From Planctomycetota bacterium (GTDB lineage: Bacteria > Planctomycetota > UBA1135 > UBA2386), in NCBI GenBank assembly GCA_965223545.1, contig OZ245006.1:1280001-1344000 (forward strand): 64,000 nt of DNA. Direction: 5' to 3'. The notes beneath the pieces were generated by a model. The model searched no databases. It was not told where the DNA came from and saw nothing but the letters and a program-made list of their open reading frames with translations. Both the position numbers and the translations under genes were made by a program. Each line of letters opens with the position of its first letter. The first letter of the stretch is position 1. Positions 30,396 through 49,719 of this stretch are shown one piece after another.

Positions 30396-31745
30396 TCAGA
30401 AGACGTAGAACTCGGCCGCGCGCGTGAACTCTCCGCTGCTCGCGTTGAGCGCTCGGAATCCCTGAAACGCTGCGGCTTGTCCAATCAGACTCGGTCGGTT
30501 GGGGACCGGAATCTGCACCGACAACGCTCCTGTCGACGAGGCGCCGGCGACGACCTGGATCAACACGAGTGGGTCGATCACGAGACCGTACTGGAACGGC
30601 GGCACCGCGAAGAAGTTTCGATACAACCCACCACCCAAGAACACGACTCCGACCTCTGAGGCGGAGATCGGCATGTCCACGGAGAACGTCTTGCCGACCT
30701 CGACGCGGGGGCGAACGCGCAGTTCGCCGTCAAGCACGACCGTGTAGATTTGTGGAGTGCCGCCGTTGGCCGAGGCGGCAAACGCAACTCGGCTGCCGCT
30801 GTCGTCCATGCTCGGGAGCCCCTGCAGGATGTAGGCGACACTATCCTCCGCGCTCAACATGACTTGCGCACCGCCGTCTCCGGGAATGATCGCCAGCCCA
30901 ACTAGGGTCCCCACAACTCCCCAGCGAGCTGCATGCACCAGCCACCGGCCATCGCGCGACGAGTGCATTGATCGCCGGAAGTAGGGACCATCGGTGATCG
31001 CCTGCTCGCTCTGACCAAGGATCAAGCGATAGAGGTGCGTCTGCAGCGCGGTCGGCGACACCATCTCGAACGCGATCGTGTTGCCGTTGTCGACCCAGCG
31101 CGCCCCCGACGGACCCGCGCCGTTGGCGCCCGAAATCGGTGATCCGGTGAACGAGGTGCGCCCGGTCTTCGTGAACGCGCTGTTGCGGAAGTACTCCTTC
31201 GGCTGGAACGGCTGCGGCAGCGAAGCCCCGAACACGACGAACTGCTCGCTCGGATCCAACGCCACGTCGTCCAGCAGAAGCGTGTCGGTGGCGATGTCGG
31301 TCATCGCACCACCGTTGGTCGGGATGATGAAGACGCGATAGATCCCGGCCTCGAGCCGGGTCCCCCACAGCACCTGATCGGTCGAGTTCACCGCCCAAAG
31401 CCGGTGGTTGGTGCCGGTCATCGTGGCCAGCGTCAGGGGCGAACCACCTGCCGCCGCGGCGAACCGCAGGTTGTTGCCATCGAGGAAGTACACCCCGCTG
31501 CTGTTCGGACTCCACAAGAACGACCCGATCGAGGCACCGGTCGCGATGGTCGACTCCGGCCCACCGGAGAAGCCCACGACGCCGATCAATCCGGCCCCGC
31601 GAAACGCGATCACGCGGCCGTCGGGGCTGATGGTGGCGTCTTGGTGCACGCCGAGCGACGTCGTCACTTGGACGACCCGGCGCTGCGATGGGAGGGCCGA
31701 CGCCGCAGCGGCGCACAGCACCGCGATCATGACAGGACTCTTCAT
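30396..31745 (-). CDS. Secreted TolB/PD40-like beta-propeller protein
   Basis: Signal peptide; repeats ISPDGRVIAF, WSPNSSGVYF, SRDGRWLV, DDSGSRVAF; C-terminal IPVPNRPSLIG...FQG segment. Confidence 0.8.
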   Translation of the reverse strand: MKSPVMIAVLCAAAASALPSQRRVVQVTTSLGVHQDATISPDGRVIAFRGAGLIGVVGFSGGPESTIATGASIGSFLWSPNSSGVYFLDGNNLRFAAAAGGSPLTLATMTGTNHRLWAVNSTDQVLWGTRLEAGIYRVFIIPTNGGAMTDIATDTLLLDDVALDPSEQFVVFGASLPQPFQPKEYFRNSAFTKTGRTSFTGSPISGANGAGPSGARWVDNGNTIAFEMVSPTALQTHLYRLILGQSEQAITDGPYFRRSMHSSRDGRWLVHAARWGVVGTLVGLAIIPGDGGAQVMLSAEDSVAYILQGLPSMDDSGSRVAFAASANGGTPQIYTVVLDGELRVRPRVEVGKTFSVDMPISASEVGVVFLGGGLYRNFFAVPPFQYGLVIDPLVLIQVVAGASSTGALSVQIPVPNRPSLIGQAAAFQGFRALNASSGEFTRAAEFYVF

Positions 31746-31990: not shown

Positions 31991-33553
31991 ATGCACCGAC
32001 TGCGCCGCCTCCCGGGGTCTTCACCGACCGTCACGACGAGCTTGTGCATCGCGCTGGCCGCGGCCGCGGCCAGCGCCCCACCGGCACAGAACACGCCGCA
32101 GGCACTGGTCGTCGGCCACGTGCATCCGGTGTCCGGTCCGCCGATCGAGAACGGCGTGATCTTGATCGAGGACGGTGAGATCCGCGCGGTCGGCCCGGCC
32201 GGCGAAGTGTCGATTCCCGACGGCGCGCAGGTCCATCGCTTTCCCGAGGGACACGCGTATCCGGGCCTCGTCGACGCCGTGGCGCCGGCCTACGGCGACG
32301 CCGCCGTGGTCGACGCCACCGACACCGACGCCGGCACGCCGGTGTTCGGCGGACTCGACGCCACCGAGCACGCCGGCCGCGCGCTGGTCGGCTTCGGCGT
32401 GACGTCGATCGGAGTCAGCAACCGAGGAGACGGCAGCTGGCGCGGACTCGGCGCCCTCGTGCACCCGACGCGCGACGGCTACCAGCCGGTGGACGCCGCG
32501 CACGCCGAAGCCGCCGCGGTCTACCTGCGCGCGGTGGGTCGACCGAACGCGCACCCCCTCGATCAAGTCAAGGCGCTGCGCGCACTCGGCGCGCCGTTCG
32601 CCAGCTTGCGCGACTACCGCGAGAAGCTCGACAAGCACGAAGACGCGCTCACCGAGTATCGCGAGCAGTTCGAGAAGTACCTGGAGTATCACCGCGCCAA
32701 GAAGGGCGAGGGCACGGACGACGAGGCCGGCGGCGAGGAGAAGGCGGAAGCGGCCGAGCAAAGCGGCGCGCCGCGCGGCCGCCGGGGCGGTGGCCGCCGC
32801 GCAGGGCGGCCCCGCGGCGAGCGGCCGACGCCACCGGCAGACAGCGAAGAGAAGCCGACCTCGACCGAGAGCAAGCCCGCGGACCCAGCGCCCGCCGACG
32901 GCGAGGGCGAGGCGACCGAAAAACCGGCGACCGAGGGCAAAGGCGACAAGGACGGGGCCGAGGAGGCGCCCAAGCGACCGGACTACCCCAAGCCACCGGC
33001 TCCGGACCCCGCCAAGGACGCGCTGCTGCAAGTCGCTGACGGCGAGCTGGCGCTGCACGTGGAGGCGCACACCCGCGTGGAGATCGAGACCGCGATCTGG
33101 TTGAAGCGCGCGCACTCGCTGCCGCGCATGGTGCTCGAGGGCGGCCGCGAAGCTGCCGCGCACGCGGCGGAGCTCGCCACGGCCGGCGTGCCCGTGATCG
33201 CCACCTGCCTGCTGCAGGCACCCGCCGAACCCGGCGCACCGGACCCACGCGCCGTCCCCGCCGCGCTGGCCGAGGCCGGCGTCGAGGTCGCCATCGCCTC
33301 CGGCTCGGCCCGCACCGCACGCCACCTGACGATGCTGGCGGCGATCGCGGCAGGGCACGGACTGGATCCCGACGCGGCGGTGCGCGCGATCACGCTCACC
33401 CCGGCCGAGATCCTCGGCATCGGCCAGCGCGTCGGCTCGCTCGAAGTCGGCAAGCGGGCCGACGTCCTGGTCACCAGCGCGCCGCTGCTGCACAGCGATG
33501 CCCGCGTTTTGGCAGTGCTCGCCGCCGGTGCGATGCAGGAGACGAACGGATGA
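31991..33553 (+). CDS. Secreted amidohydrolase-family paralog 1 (metal ligands degenerate; start uncertain)
   Basis: YPGLVDAVAP (no HxH); ITLTPAEILG...GSLEVGKRAD. Confidence 0.85.
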   Translation: MHRLRRLPGSSPTVTTSLCIALAAAAASAPPAQNTPQALVVGHVHPVSGPPIENGVILIEDGEIRAVGPAGEVSIPDGAQVHRFPEGHAYPGLVDAVAPAYGDAAVVDATDTDAGTPVFGGLDATEHAGRALVGFGVTSIGVSNRGDGSWRGLGALVHPTRDGYQPVDAAHAEAAAVYLRAVGRPNAHPLDQVKALRALGAPFASLRDYREKLDKHEDALTEYREQFEKYLEYHRAKKGEGTDDEAGGEEKAEAAEQSGAPRGRRGGGRRAGRPRGERPTPPADSEEKPTSTESKPADPAPADGEGEATEKPATEGKGDKDGAEEAPKRPDYPKPPAPDPAKDALLQVADGELALHVEAHTRVEIETAIWLKRAHSLPRMVLEGGREAAAHAAELATAGVPVIATCLLQAPAEPGAPDPRAVPAALAEAGVEVAIASGSARTARHLTMLAAIAAGHGLDPDAAVRAITLTPAEILGIGQRVGSLEVGKRADVLVTSAPLLHSDARVLAVLAAGAMQETNG

Positions 33554-34821
33554 AGACATCGCCTCGCATGACGCTGTGGACGGCCGCCGCCTGCGTCGGC
33601 GCGCCGCTCTGCGGCGGGTATCTCGCCGCCCAGGACCGGCCGCTGTTGGTGGAGGCGGCCCGGCTGGTGGTCGCCCCGGACACCGTGCTCGAGAACGGCG
33701 CGATGCTGGTGCGCGAGGGGGTCGTCGCCTACCTCGGCGACGAGATCCCGGCCGAGGCCACGCGTGGTGCGCGCCGGCTGCGGATCGACGGCTGGGTCGT
33801 GCCCGGCTTCGTCGACGCCCACAGCTATCTCGGCCAAGCCGACGATCTCGCCGAGAGCATCACCGCATTCACTCCCGATCTCGACGCCGCCGACGCCTTC
33901 GATCCGTTCCAACCACTGCTCGAGCACTGGGCGCGGCTGGGGGTCACGACGGTCGGTCTGGCACCGTCGTCGCGCAACGCGCTCAGCGGCCACGCGGCGG
34001 TGGTCAAGACCGGCGCGGTCGGCGCGCTGGTCCGCCGCGGCGCCTATCTCAAGCTCGCCCTGGTTGCGGAGTCGCTCGACCAGAATCGCTTCCCCACCTC
34101 GCGGATGGGAGCGGTGGACCTGATCCGGTCCGGCTTTGCCGAGGCCGCCGGCGACGCCGCGGCGGACGATCCCGCCCTCGCCGCGCTCGGCCGCGCCTTG
34201 AACGGCGGCACCCCGCTCGTGTTCCACGCCCGCAGCCACGCCGCCATCACCCAAGCGCTCGACTTGGCACAAGAGCTCGGGCGCGCGCCGGTCCTGCTCG
34301 GAGCGGATGAAGTGCGGCACAGCATCGCGCGGCTCGCCGCGCTGCGGGGCAGCGCGGTCTTGGGGCCGCTGGGACCCGACGCGCCGCTCCATCGGTTGCA
34401 GCTGCCGGCGCAGCTCGAGCAGGCCGGCGTGCCGGTCGTCTTCATGGCGGAACCGACCCCACCGCGGCCTGGTAGGGGCAACGCCGCCCCGCCGCGTGGG
34501 CTGCCCCCCGGCATCGTGATCCAAGGCCCGCCGACCCCGCGCCAGCCCACGGCCACGAGCGCCGATCCGGCGACGGCACGGCTGTCGGCCGCGCTGGCGG
34601 TGCGCCACGGCATGTCGCGCCGGGCGGCGCTCGCGGGCCTGACTCGCTTGCCCGCCGTGCTCTGCGGCGTCGCCGATCGGTGCGGCACTCTGCGCAGCGG
34701 CCACGACGCCGACTTCGTCGCCTGGGATGGCGATCCGCTCGACCTGTCCTCGCAACGCCTCGCCGTCTACCTGCGCGGGGAGCCACTGTTCGATTCGACT
34801 CAGGAGACCTCCTCGCAATGA
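33550..34821 (+). CDS. Secreted amidohydrolase-family paralog 2 (partial metal site)
   Basis: PGFVDAHSY, FPTSRMG, GTLRSGHDAD; ATGA overlap. Confidence 0.88.
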   Translation: MKTSPRMTLWTAAACVGAPLCGGYLAAQDRPLLVEAARLVVAPDTVLENGAMLVREGVVAYLGDEIPAEATRGARRLRIDGWVVPGFVDAHSYLGQADDLAESITAFTPDLDAADAFDPFQPLLEHWARLGVTTVGLAPSSRNALSGHAAVVKTGAVGALVRRGAYLKLALVAESLDQNRFPTSRMGAVDLIRSGFAEAAGDAAADDPALAALGRALNGGTPLVFHARSHAAITQALDLAQELGRAPVLLGADEVRHSIARLAALRGSAVLGPLGPDAPLHRLQLPAQLEQAGVPVVFMAEPTPPRPGRGNAAPPRGLPPGIVIQGPPTPRQPTATSADPATARLSAALAVRHGMSRRAALAGLTRLPAVLCGVADRCGTLRSGHDADFVAWDGDPLDLSSQRLAVYLRGEPLFDSTQETSSQ

Positions 34822-36038
34822 GACCGCTCCCCCTTGCGGCGATCTCCGCCCTGCTGTTGAGCACGGCGGCCGCCACCGCGCAAGACACTCCAGTGGTGCT
34901 CACCGGCGGCCGCGTGCTGCCCGTCGACCGCCCGCCGATCGACCCCGGCGTCGTCATAATGCACCGCGGCACGATCACCGCCGTTGGCGAAGCCAACATG
35001 CCGGTCCCGCCCGACTCGGAGAGCATCGATTGCACCGGCAAGGTGATCACTCCGGGCCTGGTCGACGCCGCGACCAGCCTCGGCTTGTCCAGCGAAGACG
35101 CCAACGAGCAAGGCGACGAAGTCACCCCCCACGTCCGCGTGCTCGATGCCATCGACCCCGCCGATCCGCGTTTCGCCCGCGCGCGGCGCGCCGGCGTCAC
35201 CACCGCGCAGGTCAGCCCCGGCAACCGCAACGTGGTCGGCGGCCTCGGCTGCGTGATCAAGACCGCCGGGGACCACGTCGCCGGCATGCTCGTGCGCGAC
35301 GCCTCGTGCTTGCGCGTCGCGATGGGCGGCGAGCCCTCTGCCGGCAACCGCGCGATCCGCTTCGGCACTCCCAACTCGATCTACTACCGCCGGCCGACGA
35401 CGCGCATGGGCGTGGTGTGGGCCGTCCGTAAGGCGTTCTACGACGCGCAGTCCTACCGCGAGCAACAGACCAACAACGTCGTCGACGGCCCCTCGATGGT
35501 CGATCCGGCGATGGACGTGCTGGTCGAGGTCCTCGACCGCAAGATGCACGTGCGCACCACGGCGCGCGCCGAGCAGGACATTCGCACCGCTCTGCGCCTG
35601 GCCGCCGAGTTCGGCTACGAGACCGTGATCGAGGAAGCCACCGAGGCCTACCTCGTCACCGACGAGCTGGCCGCCGCCGGGGTGACGCTCGTGCTCGCCG
35701 GCCTGGGGTTGGAGAGCGGCCGCGACGGCGCCGAGCCGCGCTATCACACCGCCGCTCAGCTGGCGGCTGCGGGCGTGCCGTTCGCCATCGCCACCGGCTC
35801 GTCGCTCGGCGACGCGGCGTTGGTGCAGGAGGCGATGTTCGCGATGCGCAACGGCCTGTCGGCCGACCAGGCGCTGGCCGCGACCACCGCGGTGCCCGCG
35901 GCCGTGCTCGGCGTCGCCGACCAGCTCGGCACGCTGACGGTGGGCAAGGCCGCCGACGTCGTGGTCTGGAACGGCTCTCCGTTCGCGCCGACCACCACCG
36001 CCACCCGAGTATTCATCGACGGAAAGGAAGTCCAGTGA
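34818..36038 (+). CDS. Secreted amidohydrolase-family paralog 3 (metal ligands degenerate)
   Basis: PGLVDAATS, RPTTRMG, GTLTVGKAAD; ATGA overlap. Confidence 0.88.
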   Translation: MRPLPLAAISALLLSTAAATAQDTPVVLTGGRVLPVDRPPIDPGVVIMHRGTITAVGEANMPVPPDSESIDCTGKVITPGLVDAATSLGLSSEDANEQGDEVTPHVRVLDAIDPADPRFARARRAGVTTAQVSPGNRNVVGGLGCVIKTAGDHVAGMLVRDASCLRVAMGGEPSAGNRAIRFGTPNSIYYRRPTTRMGVVWAVRKAFYDAQSYREQQTNNVVDGPSMVDPAMDVLVEVLDRKMHVRTTARAEQDIRTALRLAAEFGYETVIEEATEAYLVTDELAAAGVTLVLAGLGLESGRDGAEPRYHTAAQLAAAGVPFAIATGSSLGDAALVQEAMFAMRNGLSADQALAATTAVPAAVLGVADQLGTLTVGKAADVVVWNGSPFAPTTTATRVFIDGKEVQ

Positions 36039-37339
36039 GCATCAACGTTGCTCGTCTCGTACTGGTTGGCTGCGCCGCCTCGGCACCGCTCACCGCTTCT
36101 TTGGCCGCCCAGGATCTGGTCGCGATCCGCGCCGGCGTGCTGCACACGATCACCCGCGGTACGCAGGAGGACGTGGTCATCACGATCGAGAATGGAGTCA
36201 TCAAGTCGATCGACAGCGAGCTGTCGCCGGCTTGGAACGCCACCGTGATCGACGCCAGCGACCGCGTCGTGATGCCGACGTTTGTGCTCGCCCACACCAG
36301 TGGCGGGATGAGCAGCTCCAACGAGAACCTGCAGAACGTCCCCTACCTGACGGTCGAGGACGCGATCGACCCGTCGTCGAAGTTCTTCGAAGAGGCGCTG
36401 CGCAACGGGATCGGCACGATGCACGTGCTGCCGGGCAATGCCACGCTGCTCGGCGGTCGCGGCATGATCATCCGGCCGCACGGACGCACCGTCGAGGACA
36501 TGACGGTGCGGACCAAGGGCGGCATGAAGCTCTCGCTGCAGGCCAGCGGCGGTGGGCGCATGCAGCAGATCCGCAAGCTGCACCGCTCCCTGCACGACGT
36601 GCAGCGCGCCATCGGCGAGCTCGAGCGCAAGAAGGAGGAGTTCGAGCAGGAGAAGGCCGCGGGCGCGATCCCCGCCGACAAGGAGTGGGACGAAGAGCTC
36701 GACGACAAGCAGAAGCCGGTCGCCGACCTGCTCGCCGGCAAGCAGACGGCCTACCTCTACGTGCCCTCCGCGGCCGAGGTCGGCGAGGCGCTGCGCATCG
36801 TCGAGCAGTACGGCTTCCCCGCCGTACTGGTGTTGGGGCCGACCTGCTCGAAGCTGGCGCGGCGGCTGGCCGCCGCGGGTGTCTCCGTGGTCCTCGACGA
36901 CGAAGTCGAGCACTGGGAGACCGATCCGGACACCGAGAAGGAAACCCTGCGCTGCCCGGCCGCGGAGCTCGCCGCGCACGGCGTGCAGTTCGCGCTGAGC
37001 GTGCAGAGCAGCGGTGCCGGGCGCCGGTCCTCGGCGCCCAGCGGACCACGGCGCTACCCCTGGTGGCAAATGGCCACCGCGGTGCGTCACGGCGTCGACC
37101 GCCAGGCCGCGCTCGAGTCGATGACGATCGTGCCGGCGCGCATCCTCGGCCTGGAGTCCGAGATCGGCTCGGTCGAGGAGGGCAAGATCGCCAACTTGCA
37201 GATCCTCACCGGCGATCCGCTCGCCGCGACGACCTGGGTGGAGCAAGTGTTGCTCGAGGGCGCCGTGGTCTACGAGCGCAGCAAGGACCCCAAGCTCAAG
37301 CACATGTTCGGCGAGGACGGCGCGCAGGCGCCGCGGTGA
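36035..37339 (+). CDS. Secreted amidohydrolase-family paralog 4 (partial metal site)
   Basis: MPTFVLAHTS, GSVEEGKIAN; GTGA overlap. Confidence 0.88.
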   Translation: MSINVARLVLVGCAASAPLTASLAAQDLVAIRAGVLHTITRGTQEDVVITIENGVIKSIDSELSPAWNATVIDASDRVVMPTFVLAHTSGGMSSSNENLQNVPYLTVEDAIDPSSKFFEEALRNGIGTMHVLPGNATLLGGRGMIIRPHGRTVEDMTVRTKGGMKLSLQASGGGRMQQIRKLHRSLHDVQRAIGELERKKEEFEQEKAAGAIPADKEWDEELDDKQKPVADLLAGKQTAYLYVPSAAEVGEALRIVEQYGFPAVLVLGPTCSKLARRLAAAGVSVVLDDEVEHWETDPDTEKETLRCPAAELAAHGVQFALSVQSSGAGRRSSAPSGPRRYPWWQMATAVRHGVDRQAALESMTIVPARILGLESEIGSVEEGKIANLQILTGDPLAATTWVEQVLLEGAVVYERSKDPKLKHMFGEDGAQAPR

Positions 37340-40206
37340 TGCCAATGCGCGCTCTTGCCCTCCTGCTCGCGAGCCCGCTGGCGGCGCTGCCATCGCCGGC
37401 TGCCTCGTCCCCTTCCCCGCAGACACCGTCGGCTCAGCAGCCGGGGGAGCGCAGCTTCGCGCTGCACTGCGGGACGCTGCATACCGGCGACGGGTCCGTC
37501 GTGCGCGACGCGATCGTGCTGGTCGACGACGGCGTGATTCAGGCCGTCGTCGCCGCCGACGCGGCGGGCGCGGTGCCCCCGGGCACCCGGTTGATCGACG
37601 CGTCCGACAAGGTCGTCATGCCGGGGATCGTCGCCGCCGACACCGATCTGTCGGGCCAGCCGGACGACGACTACGCGGTCACTCCCGACCTCGTCGCTGC
37701 CGACGGCTTCGACTTCCTGCGCAGCCGCACACCGCTGCTCAGCGGTGGGGTGACGACCGTCTATCTGTCTCCCGGCCGCGCGCGGCTGATCTCGGGTCAG
37801 GGCTCGGTCGTCAAGACCAGCGGCGACCTGTTGTCCGAGCGGATCCTGGCCGAGTCGGCGTGTCTGCGGATCAACATGGGCGACGCCGCGACCCGCGCGC
37901 CCGCGGTGTTCGAGCCGACCACTTCGCCGACCTCCGACGACCCCCTGCTGCCGGCGCGCGAGCAGTTTCCCTCGGCCCGCATCTCGCTGTTGTCCGAGCT
38001 GACGCGCTTGTTCCGCGACGCCGCCGCGCTGGAGGCCGAGGGCGCCACCAACGGCGACCTGTTCGGGGACGGCCTGGTCGAGAACCGGTACTCCATCCAC
38101 GCCCTGCAGCGCGCCACGCGTGGCGAGCTGCCGTTGCGCATCGCGGCCGAGCACGCCGCCGACCTGCGCCGCGCCCTCTACTTCGCCGAGAGCACTGGCT
38201 GCCGCGTGGTGCTCGAGGATCCCTGGGAGCTTTCCACGGTGGCTGCGGAGGCCGCGCAGAAGGCGGCCGGCGCGGTCGTACGGCTCCCGGTGATGCCGGG
38301 CGCGCGCAACCCCGGTGGCGAGAACCGCGATCCGGCCGCGGCCGAGCGCCGGCTCGACACTGCCGCCCGCGCCGTCGCCGCCGGCATGTCCATCGCGCTG
38401 GCCCCGGCGAACGACCGCGGCCTGCGCGATTTCCTGATGCACGCCGCGATCGCCATCCGGCACGGCCTGGCGGCCGACGCGGCGATGCGCGCCATCACGC
38501 GCGATGCCGCGCAGATCCTCGGCGTCGGCGACCGCGTCGGCCTCATCGCACCGGGAATGCACGCCGACCTGCTCGTCCTCAGCGGCGAGCCGTTCGCCAT
38601 CGGCACGATGGTCGAGCAGACCTTCGTCACCGGCGACCGCGTCTGGCAGCGCGAATCCGAGGACGATCTGCTCGCGGTCCGCTGCGACAAGATCATGACC
38701 ATGGCGGGCAGTCCGCTCGACCGTGGGGTGCTCACCGCCGCCAACGGCCGGATCAAGGCGGTGGGAGAAGACCTCGCCGTCCCGTTCGGCGCTCGCATCA
38801 TCGACATCCCCGGCGGCGTCATGGTGCCGGGCTTCATCGACGCGTTCTCGCACCTCGGCCTGTCCGGCAACGGCAGCGGAATCCCCACCGGCAACGCCGA
38901 CCAGCGGGTTGCCGATGTGATCAGCGCGGACGACCCGCTGCTGGCCCAGGCCGCGCGCGCCGGGCTGACGACGGTGCTGGTCGCCGGCCGCGACGCCAAC
39001 ACCGTGTCGGGCCGGGTGGCGGCGGTGAAGACCGCCGGCGAGACCCGCGACGAACGCGTGCTGCGTGAGATCGCCGCGCTGCGTTTCGTGCACGACAGCG
39101 TCGACGGCAATGGCATCAAGCCGCTGGCCGACGCCGTGCAAAGGGGCCGACCGTATCTCGAGGCCTGGCAGAAGTACGAGAAGGAACTCGCCGCCTTCAA
39201 CTCCGGTGATGCCGACAAGGAAAAGGAAGGCGAAGAGCCGACACCCTCCCCCACCGACGAACCCGCCGCACCCGATCCACTCAGCGGTGTCTGGCAGCTG
39301 TCGTTCGACCAGCCGCCACCGGTGCCGGTCGAGATTCGCTTCGAGCTCGAGCTGCAGGGCACGACCGTCAAGGGTTCGATGGTGATGAGCCTGCAGGGGC
39401 GTGAAATGCCACCTGCAGAACTGCAGAACGGCCGGTTCGAGAATGGCACGCTGACCGGCACCATCGCGGTGCCGATGCTCGGCGAGGGCGAGGTGCAGGC
39501 GACGGTCACCACCGACAAGATGACCGGCACGATCAGTGGCCAGGGACAGACCATCGGCTTCTCGGCGACGCGCGTCGAGAAGATGGAGCGCGGCAGCACC
39601 GGGCGCGGGGTGCGCATGCGTCGCGGCGAAGACGGCGCGCCGAAGAAGCCCGAGATCAACGAGGCGCTCGAGCCGTTGCGTGCCCTGCTCGAGGGGCGCA
39701 TTCCGGCCGTCGTGCAAAGCCGCAAGGCGCCGGCGATTCGAGCGGTCGTCGACTGGTTTGCCGAGCAGAAGCTGCCGCTCGTGCTGACCGGCGTCGACGA
39801 TGCCATCGACGATCCCTCGCTCCTCGGCGAAGCCAAGCCCGGTGTGGTGCTCGGTCCCGACGTGGTGCGGACCGAGCGCGGCAAGGTCACCAACGCGGCC
39901 GCTGTCCTCGCCGACCACGACCTGCCGTTGGCCCTCGGCACCGGTGACACCGCCGGCAGCCGCTTCCTGCCGCTGCACGCCGCGCTGGCCGTGCGCTATG
40001 GGCTCGACCCGACGACCGCGCTGCGGACCCTGACCGCGGACGCCGCCAAGATGTTCCAGCTGGACGATCGGATCGGCTCGCTGGAGCGGGGCAAGGACGC
40101 GGACTTCGTCGTCTTCAGCGGCAGCCCGTTCGAGATGACCAGCCGAGTCCTGCTGGTGGTCGTCGGCGGTCGCGTCGTGCACGACGGGCGGGAGGCGAAT
40201 CGATGA
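37336..40206 (+). CDS. Secreted tandem double-domain amidohydrolase-family paralog 5
   Basis: Domain a: PGIVAADTD...GLIAPGMHAD. Domain b: PGFIDAFSH...GSLERGKDAD, with an inserted beta-rich domain. Alternative starts at 37339 and 37345. Confidence 0.88.
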   Translation: MMPMRALALLLASPLAALPSPAASSPSPQTPSAQQPGERSFALHCGTLHTGDGSVVRDAIVLVDDGVIQAVVAADAAGAVPPGTRLIDASDKVVMPGIVAADTDLSGQPDDDYAVTPDLVAADGFDFLRSRTPLLSGGVTTVYLSPGRARLISGQGSVVKTSGDLLSERILAESACLRINMGDAATRAPAVFEPTTSPTSDDPLLPAREQFPSARISLLSELTRLFRDAAALEAEGATNGDLFGDGLVENRYSIHALQRATRGELPLRIAAEHAADLRRALYFAESTGCRVVLEDPWELSTVAAEAAQKAAGAVVRLPVMPGARNPGGENRDPAAAERRLDTAARAVAAGMSIALAPANDRGLRDFLMHAAIAIRHGLAADAAMRAITRDAAQILGVGDRVGLIAPGMHADLLVLSGEPFAIGTMVEQTFVTGDRVWQRESEDDLLAVRCDKIMTMAGSPLDRGVLTAANGRIKAVGEDLAVPFGARIIDIPGGVMVPGFIDAFSHLGLSGNGSGIPTGNADQRVADVISADDPLLAQAARAGLTTVLVAGRDANTVSGRVAAVKTAGETRDERVLREIAALRFVHDSVDGNGIKPLADAVQRGRPYLEAWQKYEKELAAFNSGDADKEKEGEEPTPSPTDEPAAPDPLSGVWQLSFDQPPPVPVEIRFELELQGTTVKGSMVMSLQGREMPPAELQNGRFENGTLTGTIAVPMLGEGEVQATVTTDKMTGTISGQGQTIGFSATRVEKMERGSTGRGVRMRRGEDGAPKKPEINEALEPLRALLEGRIPAVVQSRKAPAIRAVVDWFAEQKLPLVLTGVDDAIDDPSLLGEAKPGVVLGPDVVRTERGKVTNAAAVLADHDLPLALGTGDTAGSRFLPLHAALAVRYGLDPTTALRTLTADAAKMFQLDDRIGSLERGKDADFVVFSGSPFEMTSRVLLVVVGGRVVHDGREANR

Positions 40207-41558
40207 AGCTGCGCGCACCCCGCGACGCGGCCGCGGCCGTGGCCGTCCTGGCAGTGGCGTCGGCACCGGCTCTCACTGCGCAGGAGCCGTCGATCGACAT
40301 CCACTTCGGCGAGCGGCCCAGCGAGTACAAGGTCGCCCGCTGGGGCCCCGACAGCTTTCCAACACCGCCGCTGGCATTCCGCGCCGCGGTGGTGGTCACC
40401 GTCGAAGGCGAGCCGATCCGCGACGGGGTCGTGCTGACGCACGACAAGAAGATCGTCGCCATCGGCACCAGCGACGAGGTCGCGATCCCCGCCGACTACG
40501 AAGTCATCGACCTCGGTGCGCACTGGCTGCTGCCGGGCCTCGTCGACCTGCACTGCCACATCGCGGCCAAGGGCTTCGACCTCAACGACACGGTGCACTC
40601 GACCAACCCGGAGCTGCGCACGCTCGACATGGTCACCACCGAGCACGAGGACATGCACCGCGCCCTCGCCGGTGGCGTCACCACCGTGCTCTATATCCCC
40701 GGCTCGGGGTCCAACATGGGTGGCTTCGGTACGCTGACCAAGACCCACGGACCTCCCGAGCAGGCCTTGGTTCGCTTCCCGGGCAGCCTGAAGATCGCGC
40801 AGGCTGGCAACCCCGAGCGGCGCGCGGGCGACCTGGGCAGCGGCGTCGCCGGCATGAACCAGGGTCTGCGACTGACGCTGCAGCGGGGTCGTGCCTACTA
40901 TCGCGCGTGGGAGGAATTCGACGCCGGCCGCGGACCGCAACCCGAGTTCGACGCCAGCCTCGAGTACCTGCGCGGTCTGTTCCGCCACGAGTATCCGGTC
41001 ACCGTCCACACGCAGATCTACCAGGTCGTGCTGGAGACGCTGCGGCAGCTGCGCACCGAGTTCGGCCTGTGGACCGTGATCGATCACGGCACCTTCGATG
41101 CGTATCGACTCAGCGAAGACGCGTGGATGCGCGGCGTTCCCGTCTGCAACGGGCCGCGGCAGTACTACTTCAACCGAACCACCGGGCAGTTCGTCGGCTT
41201 GGCCGACGCGTGGTTTCGGGGCGGCGACCACGGCTGGCAGGAGCCAGTGCGCGGGCTCGGCCGCGACGGGATCGCCGTCAACACGGACTCGCCGGTCGTC
41301 GCCCAAGAGCAGCTGACGCTGCAGTGCGCGATGTCGGTCCGCCTCGGGCTGCCGTGGGAGGTCGGGCTGCGCGGCATCACCATCAACCCGGCCCGCTTCA
41401 TCGGCGCGGACCACCGCATCGGCTCGCTGCGCCCCGGCAAGGACGCCGACCTGGTGGCGTGGTCCGGCGACCCACTGGACCCCAGATCCCATGTCGAGCT
41501 GACCGTCGTCAACGGCCGCATCGCCTACCGGCGCGACGCCGGGCGGCCGAGGTTCTGA
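40203..41558 (+). CDS. Secreted amidohydrolase-family paralog 6 (intact metal centre, predicted active)
   Basis: PGLVDLHCH, SLKIAQAGNP, TVHTQ, IDHGT, VNTDSP, GSLRPGKDAD. Confidence 0.92.
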   Translation: MKLRAPRDAAAAVAVLAVASAPALTAQEPSIDIHFGERPSEYKVARWGPDSFPTPPLAFRAAVVVTVEGEPIRDGVVLTHDKKIVAIGTSDEVAIPADYEVIDLGAHWLLPGLVDLHCHIAAKGFDLNDTVHSTNPELRTLDMVTTEHEDMHRALAGGVTTVLYIPGSGSNMGGFGTLTKTHGPPEQALVRFPGSLKIAQAGNPERRAGDLGSGVAGMNQGLRLTLQRGRAYYRAWEEFDAGRGPQPEFDASLEYLRGLFRHEYPVTVHTQIYQVVLETLRQLRTEFGLWTVIDHGTFDAYRLSEDAWMRGVPVCNGPRQYYFNRTTGQFVGLADAWFRGGDHGWQEPVRGLGRDGIAVNTDSPVVAQEQLTLQCAMSVRLGLPWEVGLRGITINPARFIGADHRIGSLRPGKDADLVAWSGDPLDPRSHVELTVVNGRIAYRRDAGRPRF

Positions 41559-41560
41559 TC

Positions 41561-42833
41561 TTGCGACGCCCCGCATCGCCGCCGACGCCCCAGCAGCGAA
41601 CGCCGCGCCCGCCGCGCGGCCGCCGGTCGCGGTGCGTGGTGTTCGCCCTCGCGCTCGGCCTGGGCAGCCAAGGGCACAGCCAGGATCTCCTCGTGCGCGC
41701 CGGGCGCATCCTGACGATGGCCGGCCCACCGGTGCACGGCGGTGCAATGCTGGTCCGCGATGGAGTCATCGCGGCGGTCGGCGCATGGCGAGACGTCGAC
41801 GCCCCCACCGGCGTGCCGATCCTCGATTGCGGGGACGCCACCATCTGTCCCGGCTTCGTCGACCTGCACCACCACGTCAGCGCCGCCGGCCAGGACCTGA
41901 ACGACATGGTGCTGCCGACCAACCCGGAGCTCCGCACGCTCGACGCGGTGCGACCCAGCGCCGAGATGATCGCCGAAACGCTGCGCGGTGGCGTCACCAC
42001 CACCCTGTTCATCCCCGGCTCCGGCACCAATCTTTCGGGCTTTGGCGTGTTGTTGAGCATGGCCGGCGACAGCCTCGAGGAGATGGTGATCCGTGAGCTC
42101 GGCGCGATGAAAGTGGCACAGGGCTACAACCCCGAACGCCGCAGCGGCGACCTCGGCGTGAGCCGCATGGGGATGCACCAGCTGCTGACCGAGACGCTGG
42201 AGAAGGGACGGGACTACACAGCGCAGTGGCAGGCCCACGCTGCCGGCAATGGCCCTCGACCCGAGCTGCGGCCCGAGCTCGAGCAGCTGCGGGCGGTGTT
42301 CGAACGGCGGGTCCCGGTGTTGATCCACACCGCTGGTGCACGCGACTGCGTGGCGACCGCCCGCATGTTCCAGGACGTGTTCAAGCTGTGGATGATCCTG
42401 TCGCACGGCACCTTCGACGGTTGGTGGGCAGCACACGCCCTGGCCGCGCGCGGCACCCCGGTCAACCTCGGCCCGCGGATGTACGACCTCGACGACGACG
42501 GTCACTTCCAGGGCATCGCCGCCGGCTACTGGAACGCCGGCTGCGTCGATCTTGTCGATCAACACCGACGCCCCCGTCATCGCCGGCGAGCAGCTCGGCC
42601 TGCAGGCGGCGATGGCGGTGCGGCTGGGCCTCCCGTACGACGCGGGCCTGCGCGCGATCACGATTCGCGCGGCGCGCCAGATCGGCATCGACGACACCAA
42701 GGGCTCGCTCGAGCCCGGCAAGGACGCGGACTTTCTGGTGACGCGCGGCGATCCCCTCGATCCGCGCTTCCCCCCCATCAAGATCTTCATTCGAGGCAAA
42801 CAGGTCCACGGACCCGAAGAGGAACGCGGCTAG
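41561..42833 (+). pseudogene. Amidohydrolase-family paralog 7 with intact ligands, interrupted by a +1 frameshift at about 42552 (real lesion or sequence error)
   Basis: DLHHH, MKVAQGYNP, LIHTA and LSHGT are in one frame; SINTDAP...GSLEPGKDAD continues in the 42552..42833 frame. Start could be 41636. Confidence 0.8.
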
Positions 42834-44245
42834 TGAACCCCCGTCATCTCGTGGTGGCAGCGCTCGCGCTGCCGTTCGCGGCGGCCGGCGCGGCGCAAGA
42901 ACGCGCAGTCGCCATCGTCGACGCTCGCATTCTCACGCTCGACGGCGACGCCGTCGAGCGCGGCACCTTGGTCATGCGGGATGGCAAGATCGAGGCCGTC
43001 GGCGCCGATGTCGACGTGCCGGCCGGCGCCGTGCGCATCGACGGCAGCGGGCACACGGTGATGCCCGGCCTGGTCAGCGCGTTCTCGCGCGCGGGGTTGG
43101 TGTCGGCAGCCCGCAGCTCGACCCGGCAGTCGGTGTCGCGGCGCGGTCGCTTCCGCGGCGTGCGCCCGACGCAGCGGAGCACTCCGGCGAAGAACGAGGC
43201 CGCCAAGAAGGTCGCCGACGAGGTCTACGCCCGCCAGGAGGTGTTCGGTCAGCTGCTGCGCGCCGGCGTGACGACGATCGGCGTCGCCCCGCGAGGCGAC
43301 GGCCTCCCCGGCCGGGGTGCGGTGCTGGATCCCGGCCGCGGGCCAGCGGCCGAGGTCGCCGACGACGATGCCTTCGTCATGGTTGCGCCGCGTCTCGGCT
43401 CCAAGAACAAGAAGATGCTGCGCGACGCCCTAGAGGCGGCCGAGAAGATCGTGGAAGAGCGCAGCCGACCACCGGAAGCGAAGGCCGAAGAGGGTGCGGA
43501 CGAGCAGAAGACCGAGGCCAAGCCGGCGGACGGCGAGAAGCCGGGCGAGGGCGATGAGCCCGTGCCGGAAGGCCCGCCCACCGAAGAGCCCAAGCCCGCG
43601 GAGGGGAAGGAGAAGGAAGAGCCAAAGGACGGCGCCGCCAAACCCGACGATGCGAAGAAGAAGGCCGAGAAGAAGAAGGATCCCAACCTCGAGGTGCTCG
43701 CCGACCTGTTGCAGGGCAAGCGCCGCGCCCTGGTCCAGCTCGGGTCCGCCAACGACTTGGTGCACTTCCTCGATGTCGTCGGCGAGACCCGCCTGCAGGA
43801 CACCGCGTTCGTCGCCCCGAGCCACGGCGGCACCGCCGGACGGCTCGACGAAGTCGTCGACCGGCTCGCCGACTGGAAAGCACCGGTGCTCACCACGCGC
43901 GGCCTGACCACCGCCACGTACGGCGCCGCGCAGATCAATCCCGCCGCCTTGCTCAGCGCTGCCGGCATCGACGTCGGCTTCATCCTCGACGACTCACCGC
44001 GCGCTCTGCGCTCGCTGTTCTTCGATCTGATGGAGAGCGTGCGCTACGGCATGCCGCGGGACAAAGCCCTGGCAGCGGTGACGCGCGTGCCCGCCTCCGC
44101 GCTCGGCATCGACGACCGCGTCGGCACCCTGTCACCCGGCAAGGCCGCCGACGTCCTCATGTTTCGCGGCGACCCGCTGGACCCCACCAGCCGTTTGGCG
44201 CGCATCTGGCACAAGGGCGTCGAGGTCGAGGACGTAGAACGATGA
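42833..44245 (+). CDS. Secreted amidohydrolase-family paralog 8 (metal ligands degenerate)
   Basis: GTG overlaps the upstream TAG; own signal peptide ending AAA GAA-Q; PGLVSAFSR; GTLSPGKAAD. Confidence 0.85.
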   Translation: MNPRHLVVAALALPFAAAGAAQERAVAIVDARILTLDGDAVERGTLVMRDGKIEAVGADVDVPAGAVRIDGSGHTVMPGLVSAFSRAGLVSAARSSTRQSVSRRGRFRGVRPTQRSTPAKNEAAKKVADEVYARQEVFGQLLRAGVTTIGVAPRGDGLPGRGAVLDPGRGPAAEVADDDAFVMVAPRLGSKNKKMLRDALEAAEKIVEERSRPPEAKAEEGADEQKTEAKPADGEKPGEGDEPVPEGPPTEEPKPAEGKEKEEPKDGAAKPDDAKKKAEKKKDPNLEVLADLLQGKRRALVQLGSANDLVHFLDVVGETRLQDTAFVAPSHGGTAGRLDEVVDRLADWKAPVLTTRGLTTATYGAAQINPAALLSAAGIDVGFILDDSPRALRSLFFDLMESVRYGMPRDKALAAVTRVPASALGIDDRVGTLSPGKAADVLMFRGDPLDPTSRLARIWHKGVEVEDVER

Positions 44246-45669
44246 GCCCGCTTTCCCCCGTCTTCGCGCGCGGCGGCACGCTGCTCGCATTTTGTGCGAT
44301 CGCCCTGTTGGCCGTCGACGATCTCAGTGGCCAACGCCGCCGCCGCTTCCCCGGCCGCGAGGCGCCCCGGCCCGAGCCCCGCGAAACCCCACCGCCACAG
44401 GAGAAGGAACCCAAGCGCGAGGTCGAGCGATGGCTGGCGGTGCAGGGTGGCGACGTCTACCTCGGCACGGGGCAGGTCGTCCGGCGCGCGACCGTGCTGA
44501 TCGCCGACGACAAGATCCACGCCATTGGTCACGACCTCGAGTTGCCCGAAGGCACCGAGACCGTGGACGCCAAGGGCAGGATCGTCGCGCCCGGCTACGT
44601 CGCGGTGCGCGCGCGCGGGTTCGGCGAACCTTCGTCACACGAAGAGAACGCCGCCGACGGCGTCAACGCCTTCCACCCCGACATCAAGCTGGGGCTGGCG
44701 GCGGGCATCACGTCGTTCCTGACCACGTTCGGCAGCGGCACGGACAAGCCCGGCGGCAACAGCGTCGTTCTCAAGCTGGCGCCGGGTGACCCCAAGGGCA
44801 TGGTGGTCGCGCAGGACACGGTCTACACGATGCGCGTGCCGCTCAACGCCAAGCAGTGGGCGGATCTGCGCGAGGCGGTCGACAAGGCCAAGAAGGCCCT
44901 GGCCGAGGGCGATACCGGCGCCGACAAGGAAAAAACCGAGTCCAAGAACGAGCCCAAGGAAGGCGGGGCAGAGGGCGGGGGCGGAGCCCGCCCGCGCCGC
45001 GGGCGCCCCGGCGGCGCTTCCCGAAACCGAGGCGGCGGCGACGAGTCCATCGCGAAGATCCTGCAGGGCAAGGCCGTGTTGTGGGTCAGCAGCATGTCCG
45101 GCTACTCGGTCGAGAACATCCGGCAAGCGCTCGAGCTGGCCCGGCTGTTCGGCCACGGCGTCGTCCTGGACAACCCGACGACGGGGTGGGTCATCCCCGA
45201 CGAGATCGCCGCCACCGGCTCGATGGCGATCCTCAACCCCCGGGAGCGGGTGCGGCCCGACCCCACCGATCCCGACCGGACCGGCTCGAACATGGCCTCG
45301 GCCGCGATCCTGGCCGATGCCGGGGTGGCGGTCGCGGTGACTCCACCGGGCGGCCGTTTCGGCGGGGCGGGTGTGGGTAAGGGCGGCATTTTGGGCCAAG
45401 ACCTCCACACCCTGCACGTCGATGCCGCCTACGCAGTCCGCGGCGGGCTGGACGACCGCGCCGCCCTGCGCACGATCACCGCCGACGCCGCGCGAATCCT
45501 CGGCGTCGGCGCCCGGATCGGCTCTTTGGAGGTCGGGAAGGACGCTGATCTCTTGATTCTCGACGGCGATCCGCTGCACTATAGGACCTTCGTCGAGACG
45601 GCCGTGGTGAACGGTAAGGTCGTCTACGAAAAGGACAAAGAACCGTTCTACCGCCACATCAAGCGTTGA
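44242..45669 (+). CDS. Secreted amidohydrolase-family paralog 9 (metal ligands degenerate)
   Basis: APGYVAVRAR, GSLEVGKDAD; ATGA overlap. Confidence 0.88.
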   Translation: MSPLSPVFARGGTLLAFCAIALLAVDDLSGQRRRRFPGREAPRPEPRETPPPQEKEPKREVERWLAVQGGDVYLGTGQVVRRATVLIADDKIHAIGHDLELPEGTETVDAKGRIVAPGYVAVRARGFGEPSSHEENAADGVNAFHPDIKLGLAAGITSFLTTFGSGTDKPGGNSVVLKLAPGDPKGMVVAQDTVYTMRVPLNAKQWADLREAVDKAKKALAEGDTGADKEKTESKNEPKEGGAEGGGGARPRRGRPGGASRNRGGGDESIAKILQGKAVLWVSSMSGYSVENIRQALELARLFGHGVVLDNPTTGWVIPDEIAATGSMAILNPRERVRPDPTDPDRTGSNMASAAILADAGVAVAVTPPGGRFGGAGVGKGGILGQDLHTLHVDAAYAVRGGLDDRAALRTITADAARILGVGARIGSLEVGKDADLLILDGDPLHYRTFVETAVVNGKVVYEKDKEPFYRHIKR

Positions 45670-45803
45670 GTCCGCGACCTGCCGTCGTGACGAAATAACC
45701 AAGAGTCGGCCGCCGGCAGCGCCCCGCGGAACCCCAGCCGCCCCGCCGCGGCTCGGGGGTGCAGGCCACCCCCCCTGGCGCCGGCCCCGCGCACGGAGAA
45801 GCC

Positions 45804-46211
45804 ATGACCGTCGAGTCCTACAAGGAGTTGGATGACTTCTTCCGCAGCATGCGGCAGGCGTTCAACAGCCGCGACCTGAAGCTCTACCGCTCGCACTTCT
45901 GGACCGACAAGCGCTTCGTGCACATGGACGCATCCGGCCGCACCGACCACGGTTGGGGCAGCTACGAGGAGGTCCTCGACCAGGAGTTCCGCTACCTGGA
46001 CTTGCTGAAGCTGGAGTTCAAAGAGCTCGCCTTCCAGATGTTCGGCGGCGAGCAGTTTGCGTCGGTGACCGGCCGCTGGCGCTCCACGCAGGTCGATCCG
46101 GACGGACGCGAGGTCTGTCAGGCCGGACGGTCCAGCTTCACCGTCGCCCGCATCGGCGACGACTGGAAGATCGTCTCGCAGCACTACTCGCTCGGCGACG
46201 ACGAGGAGTAG
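45804..46211 (+). CDS. NTF2-like (SnoaL/DUF4440) protein
   Basis: [15 protein letters not shown]...[22 protein letters not shown]. Confidence 0.8.
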
Positions 46212-46281
46212 GCCGCGGCGTCTGGAAAAATTGCCGCCAGCGGCTGGCGCGCCACCGCACCCCGGTACACTCGCGACCCGC

Positions 46282-49200
46282 ATGACGCAGATCGAGACCG
46301 AGCGCACCGACGGGCCGGGGGGGACCGGCAGCCCGCCGGCCGGGAAGCCCGCCACAAGCCCCGCCGAGCCTCGCAAGTTCAAGCCGGAGCACAAGATCCG
46401 CCTGGTCACCGCGACCTCGTTGTTCGACGGCCACGACGCCTCGATCAACATCATGCGGCGGATTGCACAGGGCCTCGGCGCCGAGGTCATCCATCTCGGC
46501 CACAACCGGTCGGTCGGCGAGATCGTCGACGCCGCGGTGCAAGAGGACGCGCAGGGCATCGCGGTGACGTCCTACCAGGGCGGCCACCTCGAGTTCTTCA
46601 AGTACATGCACGACCTGTTGGCCGAGCGCGGCTGCGGTCACGTGCGGGTGTTCGGCGGTGGCGGCGGGGTGATCCTCGGCCAAGAGATCGAGGCGCTGCA
46701 CGCCTACGGGATCGAGCGGATCTACTCGCCGGACGACGGCCGCGCCATGGGCCTCGAGGGCATGCTGGCGGATCTACTGCGCCGCTGTGACTTCGCCCCC
46801 CCATCGGACGTCGACTGGGACGCGCTCAGCGCGGCGGATCCGGCGACCGTCGCCAGGGCCCTGACGGCTTGCGAGACGCAGCCCGAGACGGTGGCCGCTG
46901 CGCTGGCAGCGCGCAGCGGCAAGGGCGCACCCGTGCTGGGCATCACCGGGACTGGGGGAGCCGGCAAGAGCTCGCTGGTCGACGAGTTGATCCGCCGCTT
47001 CTTGGCCGATCGCGAGGAGCAGCACATCGCGGTGCTGTCGGTCGACCCGACCCGCCGCCGCACCGGCGGCGCGCTGCTCGGCGACCGGATCCGGATGAAC
47101 GCGCTGGATTCGCCACGAGCGTTCATGCGGTCGATGGCAACGCGCCAGGCCAATCTCGCGCTCGCCGGCTGCATCAACGAAGCCCTCGCCGTGCTCCGCG
47201 CGGCCGGGTTCGACTTGATCATCCTGGAGTCCTCCGGCATCGGCCAATCGGACACCGAGATCGTCGACTATTCACAGGTCAGCCTCTACGTGATGACGCC
47301 GGAGTACGGCGCCGCGACGCAGCTCGAGAAGATCGACATGTTGGACTACGCCGACATCGTCGCGATCAACAAGTTCGACCGTCGCGGTGCACAGGACGCA
47401 CTGCGCGATGTGACCAAGCAGATGCGGCGCAACCGCGCCGCATTCGACGGACCGGACGACGAGATCCCGGTGTACGGCACCATCGCATCGCAGTTCAACG
47501 ACGCCGGCACCAACCGACTGTACGCCGCGGTCATGGACAAGCTCGCGGCGAGCGGCGGCGACGGGACCGGCGACGCGCCATCGACGGATGGCGACTCCGA
47601 GCGGATCCGCATCATCCCACCCGCGCGGGTGCGCTACCTGGCAGAGATCGCCGAGGCCAACCGGTCCTACGATCGCTGGGTGGAGGAACAGAGCGATCTG
47701 GCGGGGAGACTGCACAAGCTGCGCGGCGCGCTCACCGAGATCGACGGGGATACCGGAGCACCGGCGGACGCGGCCAAGAGCTCGCTGCAACAGCACATCG
47801 ACTCCCTCGACGAAAAGCTCGCGCCCGAGGCGAAGACCGCGCTGCAGCGGTGGCCGGCCGTGGTCGAGAGCTACCAGGGCCCACTGCACACCTTCCAGGT
47901 GCGCGGCAAATCGGTGCAAGTGCAGCAGTCCAGCGAGACCCTTTCTCGCCAGAGCGTGCCCAAGGTCGCGCTTCCGCGCTACCGCGACGACGGCGACCTG
48001 CTGCGGTGGATTCTGTCGGAGAACGTGCCGGGCGAGTTCCCCTATGCGGCCGGTGTGTACCCGTTCAAGCGCGAGGGCGAGGAACCGACCCGGATGTTCG
48101 CCGGCGAGGGCGGGCCCGAGCGCACCAATCGCCGATTCCACTACGTCTCGTACGGGCAACCCGCCAAGCGGCTGTCCACCGCGTTCGACTCGGTCACCCT
48201 GTACGGCGAAGACCCCGCACTGCGCCCCGACATCTACGGCAAGATCGGCAACGCCGGCGTCTCGATCTGCACGCTCGACGACGCCAAGAAGCTGTACTCG
48301 GGCTTCGACTTGGCCGACCCGCGAACGTCGGTGTCGATGACGATCAACGGGCCCGCCCCCATGCTGCTGGGCTTCTTCATGAACGCGGCGGTGGACCAAC
48401 AGTGCGAGGTCTACATCCGCGAACAGGGCCTGACCGCGGACGTCGAGGCCAAGCTCGACGCGCTCTTCGCCGAGCGCGGTGCGCCGCGGCCGCGCTACGA
48501 GGGTGAGCTGCCGACCGGACACAACGGGCTCGGCCTGCTGCTGCTGGGCGCGACGGGCGACCAAGTCCTACCGGCCGACGTCTACCGCGAGATCCGCGGC
48601 CGGACCCTGCAAGCGGTCCGCGGCACGGTGCAGGCCGACATCCTCAAGGAGGACCAGGCCCAGAACACGTGCATCTTCTCCACCGAGTTCGCCCTGCGCA
48701 TGATGGGCGACATCCAGGAGTACTTCGTCGAGCACGGGGTTCGCAACTTCTACTCGGTCTCGATCTCCGGCTACCACATCGCCGAAGCCGGCGCCAACCC
48801 GATCACCCAGCTGGCGCTGACGCTCGCCAACGGCTTCACCTACGTGGAGTACTACTTGGCGCGCGGCATGCACATCGACGACTTCGCGCCCAACCTGTCG
48901 TTCTTCTTCAGCAACGGACTCGACCCCGAGTACGCCGTCATCGGCCGCGTCGCGCGCCGCATCTGGGCCAAGGCCATGCGCTACCGATACGGCGGCAACG
49001 CCCGCAGCCAGAAGCTGAAGTACCACATCCAGACGTCGGGCCGGTCGCTGCACGCGCAGGAGATCCAGTTCAACGACATCCGCACGACGCTGCAGGCGTT
49101 GTACGCGATCTACGACAACTGCCAGAGCCTGCACACCAACGCCTACGACGAGGCCATCACCACGCCCACCGAGGAATCCGTCCGCCGGGCGATGGCGATC

Positions 49201-49719
49201 CAGCTGATCATCAATCGCGAACTCGGCTTGGCCAAGAACGAGAACCCGTTGCAGGGCTCCTTCATCATCGAGCAGCTCAGCGATCTGGTCGAGGAAGCCG
49301 TGCTGCGCGAATTCGAGTCGATCGCCGAACGCGGCGGCGTGCTCGGCGCGATGGAGACGATGTACCAACGCGGCAAGATCCAGGACGAGTCGCTGCACTA
49401 CGAGAAGCTGAAGGCCTCGGGCGAGCTCCCGGTGATCGGCGTCAACACCTTCCTCGGCAAGGACGGCTCGCCGATCCAACGCGTCGAAGAGGTGATGCGT
49501 TCGAGCGAGGAAGAGAAGCGCTTCGCCATCGACTCCCTCGAGGCGTTCCAGCAGCGCAACCGCGAGCCGGCCGACCGCGCACTCGAGGCGCTGCAGCGGA
49601 CCGCGCTCTCGGGCGGCAATCTGTTCGACTCGCTGATGGAAGCCACCAAAGTGGCGTCGCTGGGACAGATCTCTGCGGCGCTCTACGGCGTCGGCGGACG
49701 CTACCGGCGCAACATGTAG
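46282..49719 (+). CDS. icmF: Fused isobutyryl-CoA mutase / MeaI GTPase chaperone
   Basis: B12-binding [13 protein letters not shown]-loop GTGGAGKSS with LLGDRIRMN and NKFD; mutase barrel [21 protein letters not shown]; ends GGRYRRNM. Confidence 0.96.

Follow-up and report, generated by a model that had tools for sequence, protein, structure and literature searches.

The window analysed here is a stretch of 64,000 nucleotides from a Planctomycetota bacterium (GTDB lineage Planctomycetota; UBA1135; UBA2386; assembly GCA_965223545.1, contig OZ245006.1, positions 1,280,001 to 1,344,000). On its + strand, at 31991..45669, nine genes lie in tandem, one of which (gene 5) encodes two domains. A first-pass annotation made from the sequence alone had described them as an operon of amidohydrolase genes, and both the coordinates and the stop/start junctions were borne out: stop and start overlap by 4 nt at six junctions and by 1 nt at 42833, and a 2-nt gap lies at 41558/41561. 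The array proteins belong to the amidohydrolase superfamily, with a TIM barrel and a small beta-sandwich, and within it to a subfamily resembling 3OOQ, an amidohydrolase of Thermotoga maritima MSB8. The fixed core consists of eight pseudo-domains and one catalytic slot of one to five genes, and the array is real, old and not decaying. Below, loci are labelled L### and genomes G###, G000 being the genome of the window.

The first gene (p1, 31991..33553) encodes a pseudo-amidohydrolase with a hydrophobic leader and a long, charged low-complexity arm of 127 aa (45% E/D/K/R). The second (p2, 33550..34821) is the least eroded of the pseudo-amidohydrolase slots and retains, in the window, the first His, the Lys and the strand-5 His. 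In the pseudo-amidohydrolase p3 (34818..36038), which lies near 3OOQ in sequence, a conserved Arg-rich loop precedes a PTTRMG motif. Pseudo-amidohydrolase p4 (36035..37339), with first His and Lys retained, served as the marker gene for the array. Gene 5 (37336..40206) holds two fused pseudo-amidohydrolase domains, p5a and p5b, separated by a linker of mostly <10 residues. An insert in p5b (39286..39582, model residues 611-709) is all-beta, with at least eight strands on flexible tethers, and is probably a barrel, judging from the predicted model. It is found in all 37 p5b sequences listed; comparison with the Atlas returned unnamed clusters only, with scores <0.9, and no common Pfam. The insert is duplicated in tandem in L045, and some p5b genes from outside the class are shorter and appear to lack it. 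The catalytic genes follow: gene 6 (40203..41558) of clade A and gene 7 (41561..42833) of clade B, the latter broken by a +1 frameshift. The array closes with two further pseudo-amidohydrolases, p8 (42833..44245), which has a charged arm, and p9 (44242..45669), which retains an Arg equivalent to the catalytic R319 of gene 6.

Every intact gene scored above the Pfam cut-off for Amidohydro_1 and/or Amidohydro_3; the N-terminal piece of gene 7 stayed under both. The degenerate motifs that had been listed for the HxH positions were read identically, and the C-terminal GxLxxGKxAD-type motif was present, with variants. Identity between domains is mostly 23-41% in best local alignments, with short C-terminal matches of up to 51%; gene 6 and gene 7 share 45% over 373 residues. 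No promoter-like site was found, terminator-like sites were no more frequent than in shuffles, and a plasmid search returned single homologs only, at 24-27% identity.

3OOQ is the single close structure. Gene 6 matches it with an E-value of 5e-47, compared with 5e-10 for the next match, and the model of gene 6 (pLDDT 92.8) superimposes on it with a TM-score of 0.83-0.85; Foldseek gave 7e-36 for 3OOQ versus 1e-14 for the next structure. The AlphaFold model of gene 5 (pLDDT 92, pTM 0.70), with its two confidently folded domains and the all-beta insert, also found 3OOQ as best Foldseek match. The p3 profile, too, had 3OOQ as best match, with an E-value of 2e-88, and for all eight pseudo slots the profile-profile probability of the amidohydrolase superfamily fold was 100%. 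Other family assignments were rejected. The automatic name HutI (TIGR01224) reached at best 43.5 bits with gene 6 and 74.4 with gene 5, versus a cut-off of 298; most such 'imidazolonepropionase-like' annotations are proteins without catalytic residues. The Caulobacter-type Xaa-Pro dipeptidase (NF051886, XaaProDiPepCaul) gave 72.5 bits with gene 6 (cut-off 500). The metal-dependent bile salt hydrolases were not taken as the subfamily either; their description, where searched, likens them to YtcJ-like/formamide-deformylase proteins and mentions neither 3OOQ nor Thermotoga.

Active and inactive slots are sharply divided. Gene 6 carries the ligands H117, H119, K197, H269, H295 and D362 together with the invariant R319 (full-length numbering, aligned to 3OOQ). 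All 268 catalytic genes longer than 330 aa and scoring above 300 bits, among them gene 7 with an X set at the frameshift, retain the four His, the Lys and the Asp as well as one Arg, a result favoured by the use of the class's own profile to pick them. Among the pseudo slots, one of 1045 domains (p2 of L056) keeps all six ligands, in a count that allows one residue of slack at two sites. The erosion differs between slots: p1 has 0-1 of 6 ligands in 124 orthologs, p3 at most 2 in 133 and p8 at most 4 in 126. For p2, L056 is the only one of 129 orthologs with all six, and eight more have 4-5; since the L056 copy holds the full set, p2 may once have been active and have lost its ligands repeatedly. 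The Arg of p9 is kept in 117/118 orthologs.

The two kinds of slot also differ in copy number. Each pseudo slot is single-copy, none being duplicated in 139 loci, and the catalytic slot holds 1, 2, 3, 4 or 5 genes in 45, 30, 28, 10 and 1 of the 114 complete arrays, respectively. Two old clades divide the catalytic genes, A with 191 members and B with 77. In multi-gene arrays that have it, clade B stands last and single (except in L097, with two B genes), and several loci carry only clade A or only clade B. Two catalytic plus eight further domains, the sum put forward in the first-pass annotation, is therefore not a fixed gene count.

Nor does the window contain two intact catalytic genes. Paralogs 6 and 7 had both been credited with the full metal set, but gene 7 has one extra base at 42552-42553 (+ strand): two motifs that sit 52 codons apart in 4/4 orthologs are here separated by 157 nt. 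The NTD Asp and the C-terminus are encoded in a different frame, and the first one reads through into gene 8 (894 codons). An assembly error is unsupported, as two samples of a single study yielded short-read contigs with 0 differences over 41400-43000, though these may derive from the source DNA and are not independent; given this agreement the break is probably real in the population. Programmed frameshifting is ruled out by the orthologs, which are in frame. Three other loci also show breaks, and with clade B absent from several loci the loss of gene 7 is unremarkable.

The array was followed through 139 loci, namely the window, 38 loci from relatives, 40 found by a p4 match (35 of them outside the class) and 60 more of the class. 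The order p1-p2-p3-p4-p5a/p5b-[catalytic]-p8-p9 is not rearranged in any of them; the synteny check proposed in the first pass thus shows the array to be conserved. By script thresholds 114/139 loci are complete, and most others stop at contig edges. In about 10 divergent loci one slot had its best score with a sister profile, and its place in the order decided the assignment. The p4 profile matches 150/151 genomes of the class at E <= 1e-60, including genomes of 1.8-2.5 Mb, and 52/238 other Planctomycetota at E < 1e-100 (a hand count, with a gap to 1e-70). The p4 homologs that carry an organism name also come from Planctomycetota. Neither a p4 nor a p8 ortholog was found by profile searches in G141 (84% complete) and G027 (91%). 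In L102 the array ends after p5b and p8 lies on another contig, as a split operon.

Outside the Planctomycetota, the p4 search matched, at 1e-70, 8/201 genomes of the phylum of G408, an Aminicenantes genome (Aminicenantes being placed in Acidobacteriota). Of the six matches examined, three are whole arrays and three are pairs or a six-domain cluster. In one whole array (L195, G408:C1:4161000-4176000) nine separate single-domain genes occur in the same order with near-touching frames, p5a and p5b being separate genes; the same genome also carries a triple and a pair.

Copies group by slot and not by genome, with some catalytic duplicates as exception. In a tree of 403 sequences p2, p4, p5a, p5b, p8, p9 and the catalytic class are clades with support 0.94-1.0, while p3 is one clade at support 0.13 and p1 is split 22+9. 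A wider tree sample unites p3 (14/14, 0.998) and partly splits p1 and p2. For the closest pair of loci, L047/L048, dN/dS falls within 0.05-0.17 in the eight pseudo slots and within 0.05-0.08 in the catalytic genes; in this pair the ligand-less copies are thus under purifying selection and do not evolve neutrally. Three genes of another close pair had values of 0.19-0.23. Values from distant pairs (0.22-0.78) were set aside, dS being near saturation.

Simpler members of the subfamily exist. Single intact genes were found in Bacillota, and triples in Aminicenantes records. The genome of the window itself contains three more loci (G000 C1 ~860990-862240, 3759930-3762460 and 4653640-4659300): a lone exported catalytic-type gene, an active-pseudo pair, and a set in which a pseudo gene accompanies a pseudo-active fusion whose linker is beta-rich. 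The pseudo-subunits of pairs and triples fall outside the grouping of the eight pseudo slots, the base of which is unsupported. The six-domain cluster L197 (G423:C50:8000-22000), in which HxH-bearing and degenerate domains alternate, is a possible intermediate. In the Aminicenantes loci L077, L082, L083 and L085 the triple is followed by a gene for an amidohydrolase of ~620 aa and a Tat-type Asparaginase_2 gene. This neighbourhood is the only contextual clue to the substrate and hints at peptide scavenging.

No array-wide partner was detected among the neighbours; SnoaL-like and mutase-type genes occur in close relatives only, and other genes elsewhere. In the window a SnoaL-like/DUF4440 gene (45780-46211, +) directly follows the array; 24 loci of close relatives have a homolog in the same place, which is not the case across the phylum. 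Further downstream (46231-49719, +) lies a gene with fused B12-binding, MeaB GTPase and acyl-CoA mutase domains, presumably IcmF-like. Upstream of the array a divergently transcribed gene (30396-31745, -) encodes a beta-propeller-like protein with a PD40 match, and the product of a gene at 26325-30146 (+) joins a Ser/Thr kinase to an FGE-sulfatase-like domain and has a long C-terminal region that no Pfam family matches.

The array proteins are likely exported by Sec to the periplasm. A hydrophobic leader precedes 1064/1142 gene-initial domains versus 12/143 internal domains, as called by a hydrophobicity heuristic and without SignalP. The claim that each gene has its own signal peptide holds to that extent: the leaders are there, and their reading as signal peptides depends on the heuristic. 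Fusions of neighbouring slots lend support to one complex. Gene 5 is fused in all Planctomycetota loci, and other loci join p1 with p2 (L103, L128), p1 with p2 and p3 (L112) or p8 with p9 (L096); the linkers read in L112, L128 and L096 contain no leader. An analysis of covariation in 107 arrays (effective 83) was underpowered: it recovered contacts within domains and no signal between domains above background. The top pairs between subunits were conservation artefacts, and after filtering, neighbours in gene order scored no higher than other offsets. We consider it very probable that the products form some stable complex, the alternatives below that posit one included.

As to its nature, we lean towards an exported hetero-oligomeric cage of the eight pseudo slots and the catalytic slot, descended from a homo-oligomer like 3OOQ. 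The 3OOQ entry contains 10 identical chains and is listed as dihedral in a docking benchmark of complexes of 10-30 chains (bioRxiv 10.64898/2026.08.06.736029); we infer five-fold dihedral symmetry. In the proposed cage, the products of the nine slots would be exported to the periplasm by Sec via their hydrophobic leaders, and hydrolysis at a binuclear metal site (four His, Asp and carboxylated Lys) would take place in the catalytic subunit only. The invariant Arg, which suggests an anionic substrate, probably holds the substrate carboxylate; an N-acyl amino acid, a small peptide or an isopeptide is the probable substrate. Each of the eight pseudo-subunits would take one fixed position, and for this reason each slot would be single-copy and all would be kept. 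The simplest geometry would be that of the ten positions of 3OOQ, eight pseudo and two catalytic. The latter could be filled by one gene product used twice or by A and B paralogs, with extra paralogs as exchangeable isoforms. Gating or capture of the substrate would probably fall to the charged arms, the beta insert and the conserved p3 and p9 loops. A stronger version, which we put forward tentatively, is that of a proteasome-like, self-compartmentalising periplasmic amide/peptide hydrolase with ten positions and at least nine paralog types, eight of them structural, in which catalytic subunits are exchanged like cartridges, and near-universal in the class.

Translational coupling depends on short overlaps between genes, and such overlaps are over-represented among the subunits of heteromers (PMC10666635); gene order in operons tends to track the order of assembly (PMC4742563). 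In the arrays 507 of 1046 junctions are -4 and 113 are -1 (620 together), which speaks for the cage, as do the constant order, the slot-wise clades, the low dN/dS, the single-copy pseudo slots beside a catalytic slot of varying size, the two catalytic clades, the leaders, the fusions, the 10 chains of 3OOQ, the joint absence of p4 and p8 in two genomes and the simpler active-pseudo sets of the same genome. Several observations weigh against it. Start picking favoured -4 junctions, and the -4 overlap is the commonest bacterial gene spacing in general (PMC10666635). The six-ligand p2 of L056 means that the division into active and pseudo slots is not absolute. The gene count is usually nine domains, and a decamer would require one subunit to be used twice; ten is also not divisible by three, the number of domains in the triples. 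In L116 no p9 was found within 8 kb downstream, and no conserved neighbour of the array points to a substrate.

Ten positions fit 3OOQ and the A/B split, and nine fit the gene count. It is conceivable, if unlikely, that each of the nine subunit types occurs once per ring, in a CCT-like 9-mer or 18-mer, and that catalytic paralogs swap in a single slot. Nine slots are the invariant number, 45/114 complete arrays have one catalytic gene, L195 consists of exactly nine single-domain genes, and three-domain versions would divide nine. However, the only close structure has 10 chains in a dihedral arrangement, and two old catalytic clades in a fixed A-then-B order suggest two positions.

The eight pseudo-domains might instead form an octameric scaffold or binding cage, to which a separate catalytic homo-oligomer docks loosely or beside which it works. 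Eight chains per entry are common in more distant relatives (ADH3, 3MKV and others), no fusion of a catalytic with a pseudo slot was seen in intact arrays, and a lone catalytic-type gene exists elsewhere in the same genome. Such an arrangement is unlikely, for the catalytic slot stays between p5b and p8, mostly in overlapping frames, and active-pseudo fusions do occur in the simpler versions.

That no stable complex forms, and that the pseudo-domains act separately in the periplasm as ligand binders or regulators expressed together with one enzyme, appears quite improbable. In its favour, conserved residues are particular to each slot, among them the Arg of p9 and the Arg loop of p3. Gain, loss and shuffling would then be expected, yet 0/139 loci are reordered and no pseudo slot is duplicated, and cavity positions are poorly conserved in most slots. 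Finally, recent tandem duplication followed by decay, with which the frameshift of gene 7 and the breaks in three other loci would agree, is practically dismissed, being refuted for the pseudo slots by slot-wise clades, purifying selection and presence in 150/151 class genomes, those of 1.8-2.5 Mb included, and in a second phylum.

Returning to the proposed cage, 3OOQ has the same subfamily and fold as the array and the same six ligands as gene 6. It differs in being one sequence in 10 identical chains, whereas the array has nine distinct types with hydrophobic leaders. The catalytic motifs also differ (AGNPER and GPR in the array, FGENPKR and GPL in 3OOQ), so that specificity probably differs too. 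The binuclear site proposed for the catalytic subunit, with its four His, Asp and carboxylated Lys, is that of the cog1228 enzymes, whose mechanism hydrolysis would follow (PMC10781821). Carboxypeptidases, prolidases and aminoacylases of this group (Cc2672, 3MKV, the ochratoxin hydrolase ADH3, PmAcy) share it, but show 14-19% structural identity and a TM-score of ~0.55, and are single-gene homo-oligomers. A precedent for the pairing of active and inactive paralogs is the metformin hydrolase MetCaCb, a heteromer whose operon encodes a metal-binding subunit and a metal-less paralog that work only together (PMC11271267). Active and inactive paralogs are likewise co-encoded in the array, where both are under purifying selection; MetCaCb, in contrast, has a ureohydrolase fold and two subunit types, and the array combines eight pseudo types with an exchangeable catalytic slot and is likely exported.

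The profile matches included DRP5, a dihydropyrimidinase-related protein. The dihydropyrimidinase-related proteins (CRMP) have an amidohydrolase fold, have lost the metal ligands and oligomerise; they are animal and cytoplasmic, and unlike the array they are not known to have an operon or a catalytic partner in a fixed arrangement. In the eukaryotic 20S proteasome, CCT and the plastid ClpPR a homo-oligomer has become a complex of many paralogs, whose inactive members take set positions and whose isoforms can be exchanged, but their folds are unrelated and they are not known to be encoded in bacterial operons or to be exported. Heteromers of active and pseudo-subunits are thus already known; the nine-slot array is undescribed as far as searched. 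No description was found in the literature covered (including PMC13081902, PMC13081988 and PMC12746152), most subscription journals lying outside the search.

Most known complexes built from many paralogs, the majority of them inactive, come from eukaryotes. An operon-encoded and probably exported example from bacteria, in which eight pseudo-subunits are fixed and the catalytic slot varies, would, if true, make the transition from homomer to heteromer directly testable, because single, pair, triple, six-domain and nine-slot forms all exist. If the proteasome-like version is true, evolutionary stages of 1, 2, 3, 6 and 9 domains are still alive, several of them in one genome. The retention of the array in 150/151 genomes of the class, down to those of 1.8-2.5 Mb, points to a core task of the planctomycete envelope that has gone unrecognised. 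In the proteasome-like version, the enzyme would serve for housekeeping almost throughout a planctomycete class.

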